DNA from: an uncultured Dehalococcoidales bacterium
GTDB lineage: Bacteria; Chloroflexota; Dehalococcoidia; GIF9; UBA5629
Assembly (NCBI GenBank): GCA_964582065.1
Contig: CAZOQG010000003.1
Location: 1-42,250 of the forward strand
Direction: 5' to 3'
Length of the DNA: 42,250 nucleotides
Part shown: positions 1 through 31,516 of the stretch, piece by piece
How positions within the stretch are numbered: the first letter of the stretch is position 1
Layout of the letters: each line of letters starts with the position of its first letter
The notes under the pieces: generated by a model
Told to the model about the DNA's origin: nothing
The model's input: the letters and a program-made list of their open reading frames with translations, nothing else
Databases searched by the model: none
Position numbers and translations under genes: made by a program

Positions 1-651
1 GCTCTCAAGCTATGTCATTCTGAAAGTGAGCTACCAGAGAAGGTCAGGATGCCAGTGCGTGACCTGGGATATCAGGTTACCCTGTGTCAGGCGGTTGGAC
101 TAGCAAGACGCTTCCGGTGGGTGCTGGCCGTCGGAAGTAGTGACCAGTGTTGTCTCGGCGGAGCCCTGGCAATGGGCTTCATTGCCAGACCACCTGAAGG
201 GTCAGTGTTTCAAGCCCAGCCCGAGAAGCAGCTTGAAGCTGGGAAATTTAGCCACTTGCTGATAGCACCCATCACGATAGCTGACTTCGAGCCGGACATG
301 GTCGTCATCTATTGCGACCCCGCCCAAGGGAATAGATTGGTGCAGGCAATGACCATGGGTGCTGGCCCGGGGGTTTCCGCCATTGCTCCTGGAGGCATGA
401 GCTGTGGTGACGTTGCAGGCCGGACAACTCTCAGTGACAAATGTCAGTTCATCCTGCCCGGCGGCGGTGATCGGGTCTTTGGCGGAACGCAAGACCACGA
501 GGTGGTACTCACCATACCGAAAAGCAAGCTGGAGGCAGTGCTCAAAGGTCTAGAGGATACGCATAAGCTCGGCTTCAGATATCCGGTAATGGCCGATTTG
601 AGGCATCAGCCGGCGCTTGCGCCCTTCCTGGAGATGCCGAAAGGCGCTTGA
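1..651 (+). CDS. DUF169-family protein, 5'-truncated by window edge
   Basis: Frame is open from base 1 (ALKLCHSESELPEKVRM...). Pattern CQA...C..G...PD.V.IYC.PAQ...CGD...GDR.F is typical of DUF169. Confidence 0.7.
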   Translation, partial: ALKLCHSESELPEKVRMPVRDLGYQVTLCQAVGLARRFRWVLAVGSSDQCCLGGALAMGFIARPPEGSVFQAQPEKQLEAGKFSHLLIAPITIADFEPDMVVIYCDPAQGNRLVQAMTMGAGPGVSAIAPGGMSCGDVAGRTTLSDKCQFILPGGGDRVFGGTQDHEVVLTIPKSKLEAVLKGLEDTHKLGFRYPVMADLRHQPALAPFLEMPKGA

Positions 652-712
652 GCCGCGACTATACCTCACTTGTCCAGCTTGTTATCGTCAACGCCACAGT
701 AGCTGACATTAA

Positions 713-745
713 CTAACCCACTCGCTCCAAGTACGAGTGGGTTAG
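713..745. repeat. Perfect 12-bp inverted repeat (hairpin)
   Basis: CTAACCCACTCG-N9-CGAGTGGGTTAG, with no following U-tract. Confidence 0.75.
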
Positions 746-767
746 GAGGCAAAGGAGATAGAAAGCG

Positions 768-1898
768 ATGTCACTAAGCGAGGATATAAAAGATTTCGGC
801 CTTGATTTGGGTTACAGCAAGGTAGGCATTACCCCAGCCGACAGCTTTCCCACCTACATTGCGGAACTCAAGTCCAGGTATGAGATGTATGCCTTTCACA
901 TTGAGGGCTCTTTCCAGCCCTTGAAAGGCGCTGACCCCAAGAGCATCATGCCGTCAGCCAAGTCCATTGTAGCGGTGGTCTATGATGGCTCCAAGGAGGC
1001 TTTCCCTGAGAAGCTCGTTGGCAAGATAGGCCGCCTCTACCAGGCAAGGTGTTACCTGACCCCCCGCGACCGCATCAACGGGGCTCGACGTCAATTGATG
1101 CGGCAATTCCTGGAGAAAAACGGGTGCGAAGTCGCCCAACGACTGGTTGTTCCCGAACGGCTATCGGCGGCGCGAGCTGGGATTGTCACCTACGGAAAGA
1201 ACACCTTTGCCTTCGCTGACGGCATAGGGTCGTTCATCCTCATGACCGCCTTCGTAGTCGACGTCGAGCTTGACTATGACGAGCCCACTATAAGAGAAGA
1301 CTGCCCGCCTAAATGCACCGCCTGCATCGATGCCTGCCCCACCGGTGCCTTATACGAGCCGTTGAAAATGGACCCGCGCCGCTGCATCGCCTACAACTGC
1401 TTCATGACCATTGACGGCTGGCCGGCCACCAGTAGCTACATTCCACCTGACATCAGAGACAAGATGGGCTCCTGGATTCACGGCTGCGATATCTGTCAGG
1501 AGATATGCCCCAGAAATCAGAAGCGGCTCAAGGCAAAACTGCCAGAAAACGAGTTTCTGGTGAAAGCAGCACAGGATTTCGAGCTAACCAAGCTTCTCAA
1601 TCTCACCGACGAGTTCTACGCCAAGACAGTCCAACCGCTGATGTACAACTACATCAGAGAGAAGAAATATTTCCAGAGAAATGCCGCAATTGCGCTGGGG
1701 AATACTGGCGATCCGGCTTTCATCCCTGACCTTGCCCAGGCAATGCAGGATTCGGAAGAGCTGGTGCGGGGCTACGCTGCCTGGGCGCTGGGAAAGATTG
1801 GGGGCAGCCAGGCCAAACAGGTACTGGAGGCCAGTCTGACACGTGAAACAACTGACTCGGCTAGAAAGGAAATCGAGGCGGCCCTGCTTGCCGCCTGA
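768..1898 (+). CDS. Epoxyqueuosine reductase (QueG)-like 2x[4Fe-4S] protein with C-terminal HEAT-like repeats, divergent
   Basis: CPPKCTACIDACP, DPRRCIAY and HGCDICQEICP; ERLSAARAG...GKN; RNAAIALGN and VRGYAAWALG HEAT tail; AAGGAG RBS. Confidence 0.8.
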   Translation: MSLSEDIKDFGLDLGYSKVGITPADSFPTYIAELKSRYEMYAFHIEGSFQPLKGADPKSIMPSAKSIVAVVYDGSKEAFPEKLVGKIGRLYQARCYLTPRDRINGARRQLMRQFLEKNGCEVAQRLVVPERLSAARAGIVTYGKNTFAFADGIGSFILMTAFVVDVELDYDEPTIREDCPPKCTACIDACPTGALYEPLKMDPRRCIAYNCFMTIDGWPATSSYIPPDIRDKMGSWIHGCDICQEICPRNQKRLKAKLPENEFLVKAAQDFELTKLLNLTDEFYAKTVQPLMYNYIREKKYFQRNAAIALGNTGDPAFIPDLAQAMQDSEELVRGYAAWALGKIGGSQAKQVLEASLTRETTDSARKEIEAALLAA

Positions 1899-1968
1899 GC
1901 TAGCCAGTTACCTTATGTCAAGAAGTACCCACATGTACTACCTGGAGACGGCATAAGAGAGGTGAACC

Positions 1969-2865
1969 ATGCCAGTTATCCGCACACCAGACGAACGTTT
2001 TGACAACCTGCCCGGTTATCCCTTCGCGCCACACTACGCTGAGGTCAACGGAATGCGCGTGCACTACGTGGACGAAGGCGAGGGAGAAATTATCCTCTGC
2101 CTGCACGGTGAACCGAGTTGGTCTTTCTTGTACCGCAAGATGATTCCACCCCTAGCGGCCAACCATCGTGTCATCGCCATGGATTTCATCGGCTTCGGTA
2201 AATCAGACAAGTTCACTGAGCGCGAAGCATATTCGTTCCAGATGCACCACGATACACTGGTGGGTTTCATAGAGGCGCTGGTGCTTGACCGCATCACACT
2301 CGTCGGGCAGGACTGGGGCGGAGAGATTGGTCTGCCGGTTGCAACCGAGATGCCACAGCGGTTTGCTAGGCTGGTCATCATGAATACCGGCCTGCCCACC
2401 GGCGATGAACCGATGGGCGAGGGATTTTTGAGGTGGCGACAGTTCGCCGAAACAACGCCTGACATGTCCATCGGGCGTGTCATACGCACCAGTGCCGTAC
2501 ATCCTGACAGCATTCCACCGGAAGTCATCGCCGCGTACGACGCCCCATTTCCCGATGCCTCTTACAAGGCCGGTGCTGCGGCGTGGCCTCTCCTTGTACC
2601 CATTCACCCTAACGACCCCGGTGCCGCTGAGATGCGGCAGGCTCGGCAGGTTCTGTCCAAATGTGACAAGCCAGTCCTGGTGATGTTCTCTGACGGCGAT
2701 CCTGTTACACGAGGCGGTGACAAATTCTTCCGTCGGCTCATACCTACGGCCAAAGACCAGCCTGAAATTGTGATTAAGGGTGCCGGTCACTTTCTCCAAG
2801 AGGAAAAGGGTGAGGAAATCGCCGGGCACATCTTGGACTTCATCGATCGAACCCCAATGGCCTAA
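1969..2865 (+). CDS. Haloalkane dehalogenase (HLD-I-like alpha/beta hydrolase)
   Basis: RTPDERF..LP.YPF N-terminus, [14 protein letters not shown], nucleophile QDWGG, FSDGDP acid, GAGHFLQEE base. Confidence 0.88.
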
Positions 2866-2934
2866 TCCTGCCCCAGTAGTCTCCCTCCATCCAATACGGG
2901 CCGCTCAGGATTTTTTGTGGCACTTCGACGGGGA

Positions 2935-2963
2935 TTGACGGCCAGCAGCCACAGAGGTACCAT
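2935..2963 (+). promoter_or_regulatory. Putative sigma70 promoter
   Basis: TTGACG-N17-TACCAT upstream of the CoA ligase. Confidence 0.5.
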
Positions 2964-3041
2964 TGGTCTCGAAAGCAATGATAGTGTTTGCCCATCGTCA
3001 TTACCGAGTGGAATCGGAGACGTCGGCTTCAAGGAGGGACT

Positions 3042-4640
3042 ATGAACATCGGCAGCCTTATCGAGGATAACGTTAAGAGGTTCGGCGAATACGAGTCCGT
3101 CCACTTCGAAGGGAAGTGGTACACGAATGCTGAAATCAATCGGAACGCCAACCGCCTGGGCAACGCACTGAAGGCCCTCGGCATTGGCAAGGGTGACCGA
3201 GTGGCGGTACAGATGCCCAACAGCCCGCCGGTGTTCTCAGCCTTCCCGGCCATATACAAGATAGGGGCTGTCGTTGTGCCACTGAATCCGCTGCTGCGGC
3301 CCGACCAGGCCGCCTACGTATATCGCGACTGCGGGGCAAAAGCCATCCTGACCAGCACAGATTACCTGGGCTGGATTCGAGAGGCACAGAGAGATGCCCC
3401 CGACCTGAAGCATATCATCTTGACAGATGGGGACGATGTTCCCGGCACCATCTCCTATCGGAAGCTGACGTCGGATAGCTCGGATGAACTGGTGCTGGAA
3501 GAGACCGATAACGATGACCTGGCGGCTCTCATATACACCGCAGGCACCACCGGTCAGCCCAAGGGGGTCATGCACACCCATTATTCCCTCTACATCAACG
3601 CCCTGGCATTCTACGAGTTCCTTCTGGTTCATCGCCCGGTGACCTTGCGCCTAAGCAGCCAGGCCATAGACGCCAAAACGCTTCAACCCATTGAGGTAGT
3701 GGAAGAGGTTACGGGTATCAGCCGGATTGGGGTCGGCCTGGGTGTGCTGCCTCTATCTCACTCGTATGGCATCGCGTTCATGAATTTAGGCTACCTTGTA
3801 GGAGGAAGGTCGGTCGTGCTCAAGTGGTGGAATGTTGAAGAGGCACTAAAGACCATAGAGACCTGTCGGGTTGCTCACATGGCCGCAGTCCCCACGATGT
3901 ATATCCAGATGTTGAATTACCCTGACCTGGACAAGTACGACCTGAGTTCACTGGAGAACTGTACCTCGGGTGCAGCACCACTCCCAGTAGAAGTTGCCCA
4001 AGCCTGGAAGCGGAGGACGGGGAGCGACATAAGAGAAGGCTGGGGCTTAACCGAGACGGGAGCTACTACTTCAGGAGCGCCGGCGGGGCTTCCACCGAAG
4101 TACGGCTCCATCGGTCAGTGCTTGTTGAAGTGCAACGCCATTAAGGTGTTCAACGAGAACGGTGGCGAGTTCCCGCAGGGCCAGGTGGGTGAGCTCGTAG
4201 TCAAAGGCCCCACACTGATGAAGGGCTACTGGAATCTCCCCGAAGAGACGGCCAAGACCATCAGGGACGGCTGGCTCTACACCGGCGACATAGGGTATGT
4301 GGATGCCGACGGCTACTTCTACATCACCGACCGCAAGAAGGATATCATCATCAGGGGCGGGGAGAATCTGTCACCAAGAGAGGTGGAGGAGGTTCTCCAC
4401 CAGCATCCCAAGGTAGCCGAAGCCGGAGTTATCGGCATCCCCGACGAAGTGTATGGCGAGGAGATAAAGGCCTTCGTGGCTCTCAAAGCCGGTAAGCAGG
4501 CTGGTGAAGAGGAGATAATTGCCTTTTGCAAGGAACGCCTGCCCACCTTCAAGACACCGAAGACTGTTCAGTTCATGGAGGCACTGCCAAAGAATCTTTT
4601 GGGCAAGGTACTGAGAGCAGAACTGCGCAAGCTGGGCTAG
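3042..4640 (+). CDS. Long-chain-fatty-acid--CoA ligase family (AMP-forming)
   Basis: ATG 3042 after AAGGAGG; motifs YTAGTTGQPKG, GWGLTE, TGDIG, DRKKDIIIRGGEN, LPKNLLGKV. Confidence 0.9.
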   Translation: MNIGSLIEDNVKRFGEYESVHFEGKWYTNAEINRNANRLGNALKALGIGKGDRVAVQMPNSPPVFSAFPAIYKIGAVVVPLNPLLRPDQAAYVYRDCGAKAILTSTDYLGWIREAQRDAPDLKHIILTDGDDVPGTISYRKLTSDSSDELVLEETDNDDLAALIYTAGTTGQPKGVMHTHYSLYINALAFYEFLLVHRPVTLRLSSQAIDAKTLQPIEVVEEVTGISRIGVGLGVLPLSHSYGIAFMNLGYLVGGRSVVLKWWNVEEALKTIETCRVAHMAAVPTMYIQMLNYPDLDKYDLSSLENCTSGAAPLPVEVAQAWKRRTGSDIREGWGLTETGATTSGAPAGLPPKYGSIGQCLLKCNAIKVFNENGGEFPQGQVGELVVKGPTLMKGYWNLPEETAKTIRDGWLYTGDIGYVDADGYFYITDRKKDIIIRGGENLSPREVEEVLHQHPKVAEAGVIGIPDEVYGEEIKAFVALKAGKQAGEEEIIAFCKERLPTFKTPKTVQFMEALPKNLLGKVLRAELRKLG

Positions 4641-4784
4641 TTACCACGAGCAAGGTCGGCCTGACTTCTTCTGAGTGACATACTTAGCCGCGGTTCCAAA
4701 TTGCGCGGTTGGCCGAGCTGTGCCGACAGGGCGGTTGCAAGCCGCTCGCAAGGGGATTTCTTCAACACCCGAGTGACAAACAAA

Positions 4785-4793
4785 TGGTATAAT
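4785..4793 (+). promoter_or_regulatory. Putative extended -10 promoter
   Basis: TGgTATAAT about 185 nt upstream of the 4979 start. Confidence 0.45.
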
Positions 4794-4978
4794 AATGGCC
4801 ACAATGGCGAGAACGCTCATAAGCGCTGCCCGTCCTTGTTTCAGTGGTGAACAGGGAAAGCGTGGAAAAGCGGCGAGATGTTGTATCCTCCTTCAATACA
4901 ATGTCTTCGAGCGAGACGATACTGTGAAGAACTCATCCAAAATAGACTGATGTAAAACAAAAGGAGGCAGGAAAAACA

Positions 4979-7627
4979 ATGAAAGATTATGATGTCGTGG
5001 TGGTGGGTGCTGGCCTGGGAGGTCTTTCCGCTGCGACCTTTCTCGCCAAGGCAGGGAAAAAAGTGTTAGTTCTGGAAAAAAATAACGTTCCTGGGGGATA
5101 TGCTTCGTCCTTCACCCGAGGACGCTTCGAGTTCGAGATCGCCCTGCACGAGCTTTCCGGGTTGGGAACCGAGGCCAATCAAGGGCCTGCTCGCAGGATA
5201 TTGAACCAATGTGGGGTGGCACAAAAGGTAGAGTTTATCCCCATCCCCGATTTCTATCGTGGCGTACTTCCCGACGTGGATATCATCATACCTTTAGGAC
5301 GTCAAAACTTCGAGGAGGTCCTGTGTAGTCAATTTCCTGCGGATGCCGAGGGGCTAAAGCGCTTCTGCTCCACCATGTTCAATTTTGCTGAGGAGGCATT
5401 GAAGGCAAATCGTGTGGGGATGAAGAGGGTTATGGAGGAGCCCTCTCAATTCCCTACTCTGCTGGCCAACTTTGGCCGTAGCCTGAGCGAAGTGCTCAAT
5501 CCGGAGGTATCTGACAAAAAAGCGCGCGCGGTGATTGGCCAGATTTGCGGCTACTACGGCCAACCTCCGTCGAAGCTCTCCTTTATGACCTACGCTTTGG
5601 GAACGATGAGTTATCTCAAGTTTGGGCCGGCACACATAAAGGGGAAGTCGCACGCGCTATCTCAAGCCTTCGTTGACACCATTGAGGAGTACGGCGGAGA
5701 GGTGTGGTTAAACAACGGAGCGGCACGCATTCTCACTTCCGGCGGCAAGTTGCGGGGCGTGGTGGCCGAGGACGGCACGGAGGTCATCAGCCCATACGTG
5801 GTATGCAACGCCAACCCTATGATAACCTGTCTTGACCTCATCGGAAGGGAAGAGGTCCCCGATTGGTATCTAAGGCGCCTGGGGGCATGGTCTGGAGGTG
5901 TATCCACCATAAACGTCTATCTCGGCCTCGACTGCCCCTACACAGATCTTGGTCTGAAGACACATGAAACTTTTGTCAACCTGGGATATGACCTGGATAG
6001 ACAGTATGAGTTGGCGAGAACTGACATCAGTCTTGCTCCTGATGGAGCAGGGGTAACAGCCTACAACGTGGTAGACGAGGGATTCTCTCCTCCGGGCACT
6101 TCAGTGGTGGTCCTGACTCTGATAGCCTACGCTGACCCCTGGCTGAAGCTTCCCCCCTCTCAATATATGGAAACGAAGAATCTGCTGGCAGACAAGGTCA
6201 TCGATCTTGCGGAAAGAGTGGCACCGGGTCTGAGAGACCACATTGAGGTATTGGAGGTCGCCACCCCTCTGACCAATATACGGTATACGGGAAACCTCGG
6301 AGGCAGCATCATCGGATTTGATGAAAACTACCAGGGAACGGGGCAGACGCATCTGCCCAACCGCGGACCACTGGAAGGACTATATTTTGCCAATGCCTGG
6401 GTGAATCTCGGTGGGGGATATGAGACATGTATGTTCTCCGGGCATCAGGCTTCAAAGGAAGTGCTGGAGGATATGGAGCGAGGCGGCAGGGACGTAGTCG
6501 TAATGGAGAAGTTAAAAAGTCGACTCGATGAGCAGGCCAAAGACGCGGATGAGGTGAAGGATATCCCATTCCGCCGGGCTAAAGAGACTATATCGAAATT
6601 GCACCCCGAACGCATCTCTCTGAAAGTAAAGGAGATAATCGAGGAGACTCCGACCACGAAGACCCTGAGGATGGTAGCAGAGAACGGAACACTGCCCTAT
6701 TTCAGAGCCGGCCAATACGTCAATTTGTTCGTCAACATCGATGGAGTCTTAACCTCCCGTCCTTACAGCATTTCATCCCCTCCTGGGAAGCCCTATTATG
6801 ATTTCACCGTGCGCCGAATGGAGGCAGGTTTCGTCTCACATTATCTTTTGGACCGTGTGAAGCCAGGCGATGCCTTCCAATCTACCGGGCCCAACGGGAG
6901 CTTTTACTATGAACCACTCATGGACTCTTCTGACCTGGTCTTTCTTGCTGGCGGAAGCGGCATAACTCCCGTCGCATCCATCATCAGGGAGGTGGCGGAG
7001 AAAGGACTGCCTTTGAATATTCACCTTCTCTACGGCAGCCGGAACCCGGCAGATATCATCTATGAAAAGGAACTAAAAGAGCTTGCGGCAAGGCATCAAA
7101 ACATAAGGGTGGACTTTGTCATCAGCGAGCCTCCAGAGGGATGGCAGGAACCTTGCGGCTTCCTGGACACAGCGATGATATCCTCGCTAGTAGGCTCAGT
7201 CAAGGGCAAGACCTTCTTGCTGTGTGGTCCTGAACAGATGTACATCTTGTGCGAGGAGGCACTCAAGACACTGGGCATACCTTTGAGGCGCACAAAGAAA
7301 GAGGTTTACGGGCCGCCAGCAGACGTCACCTCAGAACCCGGCTGGCCGGGAATCCCCCCTGATACAGAGTTCGAAGTCACCGAAGAGAGATCAGGGCGTA
7401 CCTTAAAGGCCAAGGCCGGAGAACCACTGATGATATCGCTTGAGCGTGCAGGGATAGTGGTCCCCGCTCTGTGCCGGTCGGGAGAGTGCACTACCTGCCG
7501 CACGCGGCTTGTTTCAGGCAAGGTGTTCGCTCCGGCTCGGGTACACCGGCGCTGGTCAGATGAGAAAGCAGGCTATATTCATCCGTGCATGAGCTACCCA
7601 TTGGAGAACCTGCGTATTCGGCTCTGA
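4979..7627 (+). CDS. Phytoene-dehydrogenase-like FAD oxidoreductase fused to FNR-type FAD/NAD(P) reductase and [2Fe-2S] ferredoxin domains
   Basis: N-terminal VVGAGLGGL...VLEK...PGGY and ATPLT..RYTGN; then RPYSISS, GGSGITP, LCGP; C-terminal CRSGECTTC...HPC; AAGGAGG RBS. Confidence 0.88.
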   Translation: MKDYDVVVVGAGLGGLSAATFLAKAGKKVLVLEKNNVPGGYASSFTRGRFEFEIALHELSGLGTEANQGPARRILNQCGVAQKVEFIPIPDFYRGVLPDVDIIIPLGRQNFEEVLCSQFPADAEGLKRFCSTMFNFAEEALKANRVGMKRVMEEPSQFPTLLANFGRSLSEVLNPEVSDKKARAVIGQICGYYGQPPSKLSFMTYALGTMSYLKFGPAHIKGKSHALSQAFVDTIEEYGGEVWLNNGAARILTSGGKLRGVVAEDGTEVISPYVVCNANPMITCLDLIGREEVPDWYLRRLGAWSGGVSTINVYLGLDCPYTDLGLKTHETFVNLGYDLDRQYELARTDISLAPDGAGVTAYNVVDEGFSPPGTSVVVLTLIAYADPWLKLPPSQYMETKNLLADKVIDLAERVAPGLRDHIEVLEVATPLTNIRYTGNLGGSIIGFDENYQGTGQTHLPNRGPLEGLYFANAWVNLGGGYETCMFSGHQASKEVLEDMERGGRDVVVMEKLKSRLDEQAKDADEVKDIPFRRAKETISKLHPERISLKVKEIIEETPTTKTLRMVAENGTLPYFRAGQYVNLFVNIDGVLTSRPYSISSPPGKPYYDFTVRRMEAGFVSHYLLDRVKPGDAFQSTGPNGSFYYEPLMDSSDLVFLAGGSGITPVASIIREVAEKGLPLNIHLLYGSRNPADIIYEKELKELAARHQNIRVDFVISEPPEGWQEPCGFLDTAMISSLVGSVKGKTFLLCGPEQMYILCEEALKTLGIPLRRTKKEVYGPPADVTSEPGWPGIPPDTEFEVTEERSGRTLKAKAGEPLMISLERAGIVVPALCRSGECTTCRTRLVSGKVFAPARVHRRWSDEKAGYIHPCMSYPLENLRIRL

Positions 7628-7715
7628 AGGAGTGGACACCGTTCTCCAAGACCCACTACAAATTCAAACACGTTTTCAGCAGTGTGACGGGAGTTGGATA
7701 TGGCAGAAATATTAC

Positions 7716-7792
7716 TGGCGACCCCGATCGGATTCGAACCGACGATCTCCACCGTGACAGGGTGGCATGTTAGACCGCTACACCACGGGGCC
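7716..7792 (-). tRNA. tRNA-Asp(GTC)
   Basis: Reverse complement GGCCCCGTGGTGTAGCGGTCTAACATGCCACCCT-GTC-ACGGTGGAGATCGTCGGTTCGAATCCGATCGGGGTCGCCA forms a full cloverleaf with encoded CCA. Confidence 0.97.
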
Positions 7793-7840
7793 GCACTTAC
7801 GAAAGGCCCAAACTTTTCTTGGGCAACCTGGACCTCCAAA

Positions 7841-9720: not shown

Positions 9721-9814
9721 GAAGCACTGCTTTTCTGAGCTTTACTTGCTGGTTTGTGCCGATATATGATATATTGATTGTGACATATTAGAAAGTTGAC
9801 AGAGATTTTAGTTA

Positions 9815-9914
9815 GCCGCTAGGGGTGCTCAGAATCTAGACGGAAGGCTGAGACTCCGCTGAGGCGGAGAACCCTTGGAACCTGACTTTGATAATTCAAG
9901 CGTAGGGAAGCGGT
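9815..9914 (+). ncRNA. TPP riboswitch
   Basis: GGGGTGC...GGCTGAGA...ACCCTTGGAACCTGA...ATAAT...AGCGTAGGGAAG; P1 GCCGCT/AGCGGT; directly upstream of thiC. Confidence 0.93.
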
Positions 9915-9917
9915 ATC

Positions 9918-9962
9918 AAACCAAGGGTCTAGTGGTTCTTAACTAGAGTTCTTGGTTTTTTT
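9918..9962 (+). terminator. Riboswitch-associated intrinsic terminator
   Basis: AAACCAAGGGTCTAGT...ACTAGAGTTCTTGGTTT hairpin ending in a T7 run. Confidence 0.8.
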
Positions 9963-30824: not shown

Positions 30825-30901
30825 TTCCATAAATGTCATTCTGGACTATACTATATGCTATAAACTCTCTCCAAAAGGGGGGTCAATATGGGAGAAGGAA
30901 G

Positions 30902-31516
30902 ATGTTTGACAAATTCATGAGAGCCCTCAGAAGGGGGCATCGAAATGAGAAGGGCATCACCGGCCTGGAGACGGCGATTATCCTGATTGCTTTTGTCACC
31001 GTAGCTGCAGTGTTTGGCTATGCCGTGCTCTCCGCTGGTATCTTCTCGGCTGAGAAGGGTAAAGAGACTGTCTATCTCGGCCTCCAGGAAGCCAAGAGCA
31101 CCATGGAGCTCACGGGAAGCGTTGTCGCTTTCGGCGAGAACGCGACAGATACGGTAAGCTCGATTAAATTCACCGTGCGCAATGCTCTAGGTGGAGAGGC
31201 CATAGACCTGACGATACCGCCCAACAACAAATCCATCCTCACCTACATTGATTCTCAACAGTATCACAACGACGCGAAGTTTGCTTTAACATGGGTAGGC
31301 ATGAGCGACAACGATAGCCTGCTGGAGGTAGGTGAGAAGGCGCAGATCACATTTGACTGCACCGACATTGACATAGCTACGGCAAGCACGCCCCTCCTCC
31401 CAACCCTGGGATGTTACACGAAGTTTACCCTCGAGTTCAAGCCACCTGCCGGGTCCGTAGTTACAGTCGAAAGGATCACGCCTGGCGACATGGATCCGGT
31501 CATGAATCTACACTAA
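30902..31516 (+). CDS. Archaellin (archaeal-type flagellin, ArlB/FlaB family)
   Basis: Class III signal peptide ...RNEKG/ITGLETAIILIAFVTVAAVFG; DNDSLLEVGE motif; likely ATG 30902 after a purine-rich RBS. Confidence 0.9.
   Translation: MFDKFMRALRRGHRNEKGITGLETAIILIAFVTVAAVFGYAVLSAGIFSAEKGKETVYLGLQEAKSTMELTGSVVAFGENATDTVSSIKFTVRNALGGEAIDLTIPPNNKSILTYIDSQQYHNDAKFALTWVGMSDNDSLLEVGEKAQITFDCTDIDIATASTPLLPTLGCYTKFTLEFKPPAGSVVTVERITPGDMDPVMNLH

Follow-up and report, generated by a model that had tools for sequence, protein, structure and literature searches.

Gene structure and domain architecture

The stretch of DNA analysed here (the window) comprises 42,250 nt, positions 1 to 42,250 of contig CAZOQG010000003.1, from an uncultured Dehalococcoidales bacterium (GCA_964582065.1). 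Close to its beginning lies a gene whose product resembles the epoxyqueuosine reductase QueG, and this QueG-like protein is the subject of the present analysis. The gene and the parts of its product, together with the positions that matter for the comparison with QueG, are as follows.

768–1898, forward strand: QueG-like gene, an intact open reading frame (ORF) with an ATG start, 376 amino acids (aa)
768–1292, forward strand: N-terminal domain (residues 1–175), a homologue of QueG's nitroreductase-type, cobalamin-binding domain
1047–1058, forward strand: R94-C95-Y96-L97, at the x-D-Y-H site of QueG
1137–1142, forward strand: Q124-R125, the site at which the Asp134 loop (VDTG) is deleted
1158–1160, forward strand: R131, the equivalent of B. 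subtilis Arg141 under the corrin
1302–1508, forward strand: ferredoxin domain (Pfam Fer4_16) with the ligands C179, C183, C186, C190, C206, C240, C243 and C247
1524–1895, forward strand: C-terminal HEAT-repeat domain (residues 253–376; Pfam HEAT_2/HEAT_PBS), the tRNA-binding domain in QueG

An AAGGAG-type ribosome-binding site lies 7–13 nt upstream of the ORF. The protein shares the three-domain architecture, the length and the eight [4Fe–4S] cysteines of QueG (TIGR00276; B. subtilis 5D08/5T8Y and S. thermophilus 5D6S), and the eight cysteine columns were invariant or nearly so among 101 aligned sequences. The limits of its N-terminal domain were taken from Dowling 2016 (PMC5175355); here and below, the structural background is that given in excerpts of this paper and of Payne 2015 (PMC4646009). 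The N-terminal domain was identified through full-length alignment with 5d08 and with a canonical QueG profile. The best solved relative was B. subtilis QueG (5d08), matched at E 2e-41 by the single sequence and at 1.8e-63 by the clade profile, and hhalign matched the protein to a profile of 45 canonical QueG sequences with a probability of 100 (E 2.5e-86, 367 columns). Pfam matches covered the ferredoxin domain (Fer4_16, residues 182–250, E 3.7e-14) and the HEAT domain (HEAT_2, residues 298–373, E 7.5e-15). Residues 7–343 aligned with positions 1–336/337 of the TIGR00276 model (E 1.1e-51), so that a first-pass annotation, made from the sequence alone, was sound in placing the protein in the QueG/RdhA superfamily with two 4Fe–4S motifs and a HEAT tail.

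The likeness to QueG is nevertheless limited at several points. The score to TIGR00276 was 175.9 bits, below the curated cut-off of 200 bits, and copies in relatives scored 143–178 bits. The N-terminal family of QueG, PF08331 (QueG_DUF1730), gave no match at E ≤ 0.01 in the Pfam scan. The first cysteine motif (C-x3-C-x2-C-x3-C-P) is one residue longer than that of QueG (Cx3C instead of Cx2C), the extra residue, P180, being present in 91% of the clade, and an insert in the ferredoxin domain is eight residues longer. A single-sequence AlphaFold model of the protein reached a pLDDT of only 40.5 and was unusable.

The protein is predicted to be cytoplasmic, since it lacks both a twin-arginine (Tat) signal and an rdhB partner, as already stated in the first-pass annotation. 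No RR/Tat-like motif was found in the first 45 residues (and no RR in residues 1–60), no hydrophobic stretch was found in the protein (maximum KD19 1.75), and there is no space for an rdhB-like small ORF on either side of the gene.

Loss of QueG catalytic and substrate-contacting residues

In S. thermophilus QueG, D100-Y101-H102 and D130 are strictly conserved (Payne 2015, PMC4646009). In the B. subtilis enzyme, Asp134 lies 3 Å from the substrate ring, His106 is hydrogen-bonded to Asp134 and Arg141 lies under the corrin; the Q base is surrounded by Gln220, Phe49, Thr135, Trp294 and Tyr238, U35 is read by Lys222 and Arg295, and Q formation is lost in Ala variants of Asp134, His106 and Arg141 (Dowling 2016, PMC5175355). 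The Asp, Tyr and His of this motif and the loop Asp were invariant in our 45 canonical QueG sequences.

In the QueG-like protein, both MAFFT and hhalign placed Cys under Asp104 and Leu under His106, with the Tyr kept. Because the ungapped HMMER alignment shifts the DYH equivalence by four residues relative to MAFFT and hhalign, the correspondence of Y96 to Tyr105, and hence the retention of this Tyr, is only probable. The Asp134 loop is represented by a five-residue gap in the phmmer alignment, and hhalign likewise left a gap under the Asp. R131 aligned with Arg141 and was invariant in the clade. Among the substrate-contacting residues, Gln220, Lys222, Tyr238 and Trp294 correspond to A220, S222, H238 and I296, and Arg295 to R297, although within the inserts the alignment is less secure. 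The change extends through the clade: the fraction of K/R fell from 0.76 in canonical QueG to 0.06 at the Lys222 column and from 0.69 to 0.03 at the Trp294/Arg295 column, and further basic positions of canonical QueG were lost (q84, the residue before VDT, q285 and q299), while R37, R94 and R249 were gained.

Conservation elsewhere in the protein was substantial. The eight Cys, R131, R136, G138, G143 and N145 were conserved in both this clade and canonical QueG, as were R304, N305, G311, N312, R334 and W339 of the HEAT domain, and the RAG...GKN motif of QueG was also present. Conserved residues specific to the clade were R37, Y41, Y91, R94 (82% conserved), F147 and R249. Judged from these alignments, the QueG-like protein appears to have lost Asp104, His106, the Asp134 loop and the basic residues that read U35. 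All 12 readable homologue copies from the genomes of the class and of the relatives were likewise non-DYH.

The first-pass annotation had described the catalytic motifs of QueG as lacking; this applies to the Asp, the His and the Asp134 loop, but the Tyr of DYH is probably retained. The strings on which it was based are present (GRLYQARCY at residues 88–96, EVAQRLVVPER at residues 121–131 and PERLSAARAGIVTYGKN), except that four residues, not two, separate RAG from GKN.

Phylogenetic position and distribution

A word-index search scored 8000 candidates, of which 1942 were relatives at E ≤ 1e-5. The top 120 were 73–93% identical to the query and nearly all 377 aa long; none of the 120 carried PF08331, and the names among them included 'epoxyqueuosine reductase' and 'HEAT repeat domain-containing protein'. 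With an exhaustive search, 421 representatives were recovered at E ≤ 1e-30, and 92 full-length sequences (330–445 aa) of the 151 in hand were aligned. A quick LG+G4 tree with 103 rows, for which two small paralogues without a HEAT domain from the query's own genome served as the root, grouped the 45 DYH rows in one clade (SH-aLRT 94) and placed the query in another, of 42 rows (SH-aLRT 91). A few further non-DYH groups branched beside canonical QueG. One sequence inside the query's clade (P0128) had been labelled 'DYH', which proved to be a false positive of the regular expression.

The two paralogues used as the outgroup are encoded on contigs C33 (14826–15716; locus L003 1129–2019, forward strand) and C35 (locus L004 190–1137, reverse strand). 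They are HEAT-less QueG/RdhA-like ORFs of 296 and 315 aa and scored below all cut-offs. Together with a third small paralogue on contig C42, they differ from the query's clade, which keeps the full QueG architecture including the HEAT domain.

Sequences in the query's clade carried source names as diverse as '4Fe-4S double cluster binding domain-containing protein [Dehalococcoidia]', 'PBS lyase [Lachnospiraceae]' and 'epoxyqueuosine reductase [Solirubrobacterales]', and the nearest Atlas clusters were PF08331-less members of the 'epoxyqueuosine reductase family' from Thermodesulfobacteriota and Bacillota. Relatives were found in Dehalococcoidia, Desulfobacterales, Bacillota (including gut Lachnospiraceae), Sandaracinaceae and Armatimonadota. 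Within the class, a close copy occurred in 10 of 401 genomes, across seven families. Scanning genome contigs with the clade alignment returned mostly canonical QueG among the matches listed, the best of which was 46% identical, and served solely to reach five named metagenome-assembled genomes; the plasmid collection contained only canonical queG at ≤ 32% identity. Our literature search found no paper on this QueG-like clade or on the function of DUF169, whose gene lies next door. On the sequence evidence, the query belongs to a separate and widespread sister clade of canonical QueG.

Co-occurrence with the queuosine pathway

The genome of origin is 1.57 Mb in size and 84% complete, with tgt at a contig end; queA, QueH and canonical QueG were not found in it at this completeness. 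Canonical QueG exceeded the cut-off in none of 41 relatives, six of which carried the variant. Within the genome's own family, queA and tgt were each present in 22 of 24 genomes and QueH in 18; therefore, this lineage finishes queuosine with QueH. The six genomes of the family without QueH were all < 90% complete, and four of them also lacked the variant. In the sister family, queA and QueH were each found in none of 10 genomes and tgt in one. Two of its members (G037 and G039, both 95% complete) carried the variant, and tgt, queA and QueH were not found in either. Five further carriers, from the 401-genome sample of the class, each encoded queA, tgt and QueH, and canonical QueG was absent from all five.

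In total, 11 carriers of a close copy were examined (G166 and G182 were left out). QueH accompanied the variant in six of them (G005, G064, G226, G073, G399 and G149), the queuosine pathway was absent from two, and the remaining three were incomplete (G000, G004 and G006). All five carriers from distant parts of the clade, namely a member of Bacillota, one of Sandaracinaceae, two Desulfobacterales-type metagenome-assembled genomes and one of Armatimonadota, encoded a second enzyme, which was canonical QueG (234–284 bits) in three and QueH in two. Thus, QueH or canonical QueG stood beside the variant in 11 of the 16 genomes examined, and two more lacked tgt and queA.

Because most of the carriers either possess QueH or QueG as well or lack the pathway altogether, these data argue strongly for the clade being a paralogue with a different role, and the QueG-like protein is very probably not the epoxyqueuosine reductase. 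The first-pass annotation had recommended a search for a separate queG or queH, and the outcome of this survey points to a role outside queuosine synthesis.

Genomic neighbourhood

The window is a chromosomal stretch with the core genes rpsB, tsf, pyrH, frr, dxr, ispG, proS, pheST, infC and thrS. The following features surround the QueG-like gene.

1–651, forward strand: DUF169 gene (PF02596, E 2.1e-29), its 5' end cut by the contig start
715–743, no strand: perfect inverted repeat read from the sequence, 10-bp arms at 715–724 and 734–743 with a 9-nt spacer, just 5' of the ribosome-binding site
1969–2865, forward strand: homologue of HLD-I type haloalkane dehalogenases (NF002043, 384 bits against a cut-off of 265; 4mj3, E 1.5e-91)
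2988–4640, forward strand: AMP-forming acyl-CoA ligase (Pfam AMP-binding, E 6.3e-88; NF004837, 470 bits against a cut-off of 476)
4979–7627, forward strand: 882-aa protein in which a CrtI/amine-oxidase-like flavoprotein is fused to an FNR-type FAD/NAD module and a 2Fe–2S ferredoxin domain (Pfam/NCBIfam)
7716–7792, reverse strand: tRNA-Asp(GUC), at the downstream edge of a GC-rich island (1–7800)

The island at positions 1–7800 has a GC content of 0.549, compared with a genome value of 0.5065. Not one of 233 8-kb segments was as high; this five-gene stretch is compositionally foreign. The haloalkane dehalogenase reported next door in the first-pass annotation is well founded, with the QDWGG, GHF and SDGDP regions conserved relative to 4mj3. 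Translation of the acyl-CoA ligase probably begins at the ATG that lies 17 codons downstream of the listed ORF start. The 882-aa fusion occurred only at the window locus among the 53 loci compared; self-sufficient catabolic dehalogenases carry a fused reductase module of this kind (excerpt of PMC10463259). In a related genome (G004), neither the ligase nor the fusion separates the hydrolase from the same tRNA. A tRNA gene adjoins the variant or its island at 4 of 14 genome loci. These tRNA genes were considered as a possible queuosine link and rejected, the tRNAs being Asp, Thr and Val and unrelated to the GUN tRNAs.

Upstream of the gene, the inverted repeat may be an operator for the MarR regulator of the cluster described below or an RNA hairpin. 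It was not called in the terminator scan, and the promoter and terminator scan was otherwise uninformative. Contigs of four lake-water metatranscriptome runs covered parts of 768–1898 at a level of at least 99% and spanned both gene junctions (549–1048 and 1878–2029), which is at most a hint of expression, such contigs showing neither transcription nor strand. In three runs, contigs of the metatranscriptome libraries matched from position 762/768 onward and carried two different sequences upstream; consequently, the start of the QueG-like gene is a synteny breakpoint among co-occurring strains. A metagenome contig (L134) that is 99.95% identical to the window overlaps its positions 1–2081 and extends 1462 bp upstream, where the DUF169 gene of the window proves to be the second of two tandem DUF169 genes.

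The neighbourhood was compared across 53 loci, comprising the window, 13 genome loci and 39 metagenome contigs with ≥ 46% identity; at least 900 bp was available on the left in 36 of them and on the right in 41. The recurrent neighbours were as follows.

A protein of ~395 aa with a Cys-rich N-domain (no family match) and a 2×[4Fe–4S] ferredoxin: 19 of 53 loci, directly adjacent in 13
MarR regulator: 15 of 53 loci, directly adjacent in 3
DUF169: 10 of 53 loci, directly adjacent in 8
HLD-type alpha/beta hydrolase: 8 of 53 loci, directly adjacent in 7
Nitroreductase: 6 of 53 loci, directly adjacent in 2
Acyl-CoA ligase: 3 of 53 loci, directly adjacent in none

The typical gene order was MarR, one to four copies of the polyferredoxin-like gene, DUF169 and the variant, followed by a hydrolase or a nitroreductase. 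MarR stood directly upstream also in a subclade of 57–60% identity (L160 and L161). Other carriers of the variant had unrelated neighbours. The neighbourhood suggests a regulated small-molecule function, not defined further.

The polyferredoxin-like protein itself (for example, L129 5686–6870, L143 390–1631 and, in the genome of origin, C42 1–528 on the reverse strand) contains motifs such as TCPC...C...CNCCxCCC, often occurs in two to four tandem copies or is split into two ORFs, and its Cys-rich N-domain had no match in Pfam, NCBIfam or PDB.

In the genome of origin, the end of contig C42 carries a MarR gene, a small QueG/RdhA-like gene without HEAT repeats and a polyferredoxin-like gene of which the 5' half is present, and the contig of a relative puts this end ~4.4 kb upstream of the window start in the same direction. 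The genome of origin therefore seems to possess the same MarR/polyferredoxin-like cluster head.

The small HEAT-less gene behind MarR on C42 (locus L002/L204, ~631–1416, reverse strand) has a single in-frame TGA, which falls precisely on the third Cys of C-x3-C-x2-C-x3-C-P and after which the frame and the second Fe–S motif are intact. A homologue in another genome (G030), 38% identical, has Cys at this position. In the genome of origin there is a tRNA-SeC(tca) along with a partial SelB; in relatives, SelB is complete. The TGA could possibly specify selenocysteine as a cluster ligand, or it could be a nonsense mutation.

Comparison with reductive dehalogenases and CblC

Reductive dehalogenases (RdhA; PceA 4UQU/8Q4H and the NpRdhA type) share with the QueG-like protein the redox chain of the superfamily, a corrinoid domain with two [4Fe–4S] clusters. 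Like the catabolic NpRdhA type, the variant is predicted to be cytoplasmic, without a Tat signal or RdhB, and it belongs to a MarR-headed accessory cluster with a dehalogenase-type hydrolase. However, the clade profile matched PceA-type chains at E 1.7e-09 and 2.1e-3 only, compared with 1.8e-63 for QueG 5d08; the former match covered the ferredoxin region and part of the N-domain, and with the single sequence these chains gave E 0.22. RdhA also has no HEAT domain, and the RdhA model TIGR02486 does not match the variant. As for the Tyr and Arg/Lys pair of RdhA, Y96 aligns with the shared Tyr and is variable, and R94 might stand for the basic partner (alignment only).

The N-terminal domain of QueG binds base-off cobalamin as CblC does (Dowling 2016, PMC5175355; Payne 2015, PMC4646009). 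A protein that keeps the cofactor site without the substrate residues could, like CblC/MMACHC, process the cofactor itself. In contrast to the variant, CblC has neither a ferredoxin nor a HEAT domain; B12-transport genes lay near the variant at 1 of 53 loci, and PDB searches with the QueG-like protein gave no sequence match to CblC.

Proposed function

We favour, with slightly better than even confidence, the interpretation that the QueG-like protein is a cytoplasmic member of a sister clade of QueG that has kept the class III cobalamin redox scaffold, changed its active site and performs a reduction on a substrate other than tRNA. This reduction is probably different from that of QueG. The GC-rich island, MarR, and the nearby hydrolases, nitroreductase and CoA-ester enzymes point to the inducible reduction of a small molecule (xenobiotic, organohalide or acyl-CoA) rather than to a housekeeping function.

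In such a mechanism, the protein would bind a base-off corrinoid together with a pair of [4Fe–4S] clusters and receive low-potential electrons from a ferredoxin, perhaps the co-encoded Cys-rich polyferredoxin-like protein. Electrons would pass through the distal and then the proximal cluster to generate Co(I), which would attack an electrophilic carbon bearing a leaving group on a substrate that is not tRNA, and elimination or protonation would follow. The protons might come from residues other than the Asp and His of QueG, with the variable Y96, the better conserved Y91, R94, R37 and R249 as candidates.

Several observations weigh against this interpretation. Most importantly, no other epoxyqueuosine reductase was found in G000 (84% complete), G004 (67%) or G006 (87%), although tgt is present in all three and queA in G006, and in these genomes the variant could still act as that reductase. 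Cobalamin binding is presumed from homology and from the retained R131, and no cobalamin riboswitch was found in the window or preceding the gene. Y96 is not invariant, being Ser in G064 and absent from G037, G039, G166 and G182. The net charge of the HEAT domain does not separate the two clades (+1.4 ± 4.5 vs. −0.3 ± 6.4), and the conserved R304, N305, R334 and W339 are also compatible with a nucleic-acid substrate. The neighbour counts overstate the independent support, because most of the loci that share neighbours are kin (75–91% identical) and some are near-duplicates (L151/L152, L138/L139, L149/L150 and L135/L129). Close homologues of the polyferredoxin-like protein occurred in 3 of 401 genomes of the class (four candidates scored per genome), only one of which carried a close variant. 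Finally, no longer fused forms of the variant were found at E ≤ 1e-20, which is weak evidence and gives no hint of a partner.

Among the alternatives, we consider it unlikely that the protein is a cobalamin-dependent reductive dehalogenase, or an epoxide reductase for small molecules, that works with its HLD neighbour. This idea, put forward in the first-pass annotation, has in its favour a well-conserved HLD-I neighbour and the recurrence of HLD-type hydrolases, which extends to a genome of another family (G149). MarR regulators, moreover, are typical of rdhA operons in Dehalococcoides. A halohydrin formed by such a hydrolase from a vicinal dihalide could give a beta-hydroxyalkyl-cobalt intermediate of the kind proposed for QueG (Payne 2015, PMC4646009; Dowling 2016, PMC5175355). 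The hydrolase, however, is missing from 45 of the 53 loci and its carriers are mostly kin; MarR, the polyferredoxin-like protein and DUF169 are all commoner. Further points against a dehalogenase are the lack of any match to TIGR02486 at E ≤ 0.01, the lack of an RdhA over the cut-off in the genome of origin, and a protein without a Tat signal encoded by a gene without RdhB. Both dehalogenation and epoxide reduction are at most putative functions of the QueG-like protein.

It is similarly doubtful that the substrate is a nucleic acid or carries a nucleotide (another modified RNA or DNA base, or a CoA-ester handle) held by the HEAT domain. The HEAT domain is kept across the clade with R304, N305, G311, N312, R334 and W339 as in canonical QueG, and enzymes of CoA esters lie nearby (the acyl-CoA ligase at three loci, an enoyl-CoA hydratase and a CoA transferase at others). 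By contrast, the conserved basic positions at the entrance of the QueG active site are lost, no RNA-modification genes recurred in the neighbourhoods, and some subclades lack the last HEAT repeat.

We also give little credence to a role without substrate turnover, either in corrinoid handling (a CblC-like dealkylase/reductase or a chaperone) or as an Fe–S electron-transfer protein or sensor without cobalamin. The loss of the catalytic acid residues and the variability of the remaining Tyr would fit such a role, as would the Fe–S proteins encoded next door and the resemblance of the QueG cobalamin domain to CblC (Dowling 2016, PMC5175355). At one locus (G064; L122 2636–7387), the variant adjoins, in divergent orientation, genes for a btuFCD-like ABC transporter and for a CobB/CobQ-type amidotransferase, and a cobalamin riboswitch (7249–7387, reverse strand) serves the divergent btuFCD-like operon. 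This B12-transport neighbourhood, divergently transcribed, was unique among the 53 loci, and the patchy spread of the variant (10 of 401 genomes) is odd for cofactor housekeeping; moreover, the newly conserved R37, Y41, Y91, R94, F147 and R249 suggest a remodelled pocket under selection, not decay.

It is very improbable that the protein is a diverged epoxyqueuosine reductase that still performs the QueG reaction, with protons donated by other residues: the full QueG architecture including HEAT, Tyr96 under Tyr105, the tgt-bearing G000, G004 and G006 (with queA in G006) in which neither QueH nor canonical QueG was found, and the name 'epoxyqueuosine reductase' given by JGI to relatives speak for it, but the score lies below the cut-off without a PF08331 match, Asp104, His106, the Asp134 loop and the U35-reading basic residues are lost, QueH stands beside the variant in six genomes and QueG or QueH in all five distant carriers, two 95%-complete carriers lack tgt and queA, and the three exceptional genomes are only 67–87% complete while the four other QueH-less family members lack the variant.

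To our knowledge, only two reactions of class III B12/iron–sulfur enzymes are known, reductive dehalogenation and the step that completes queuosine synthesis. With the whole body of QueG kept, the pocket rebuilt and the protein outside the queuosine pathway, the clade is a concrete and expressible candidate for a third. As a speculation that we regard as quite improbable in its particulars, this third activity would be that of a Co(I) enzyme, induced through MarR and driven by ferredoxin, that removes oxygen or halogen from small beta-substituted carbon compounds through a QueG-like beta-hydroxyalkyl-cobalt elimination. Equally conjecturally, the substrates of such an enzyme might be halohydrins or epoxides made by the HLD neighbour, or their CoA esters. 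It is likewise a distant prospect that the HEAT domain has been re-used in it for a nucleotide-bearing handle or for a partner such as DUF169 or the Cys-rich polyferredoxin.

The clade also matters for annotation. Such proteins go under the database labels 'epoxyqueuosine reductase', 'PBS lyase' and 'HEAT repeat protein', and when they are counted as QueG, B12-dependent queuosine synthesis is wrongly inferred in pathway reconstructions. A simple filter would be the lack of DYH and of the VDTG loop together with a TIGR00276 score < 200 bits.

Other features of the window

Two further features lie outside the island. An ORF at 30833–31516 on the forward strand matched Pfam Arch_flagellin (PF01917, E 1.3e-23) in this bacterial genome of the Dehalococcoidia type. 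A thiamine pyrophosphate (TPP) riboswitch at 9811–9925 on the forward strand precedes thiC, and the same arrangement is found in G004.

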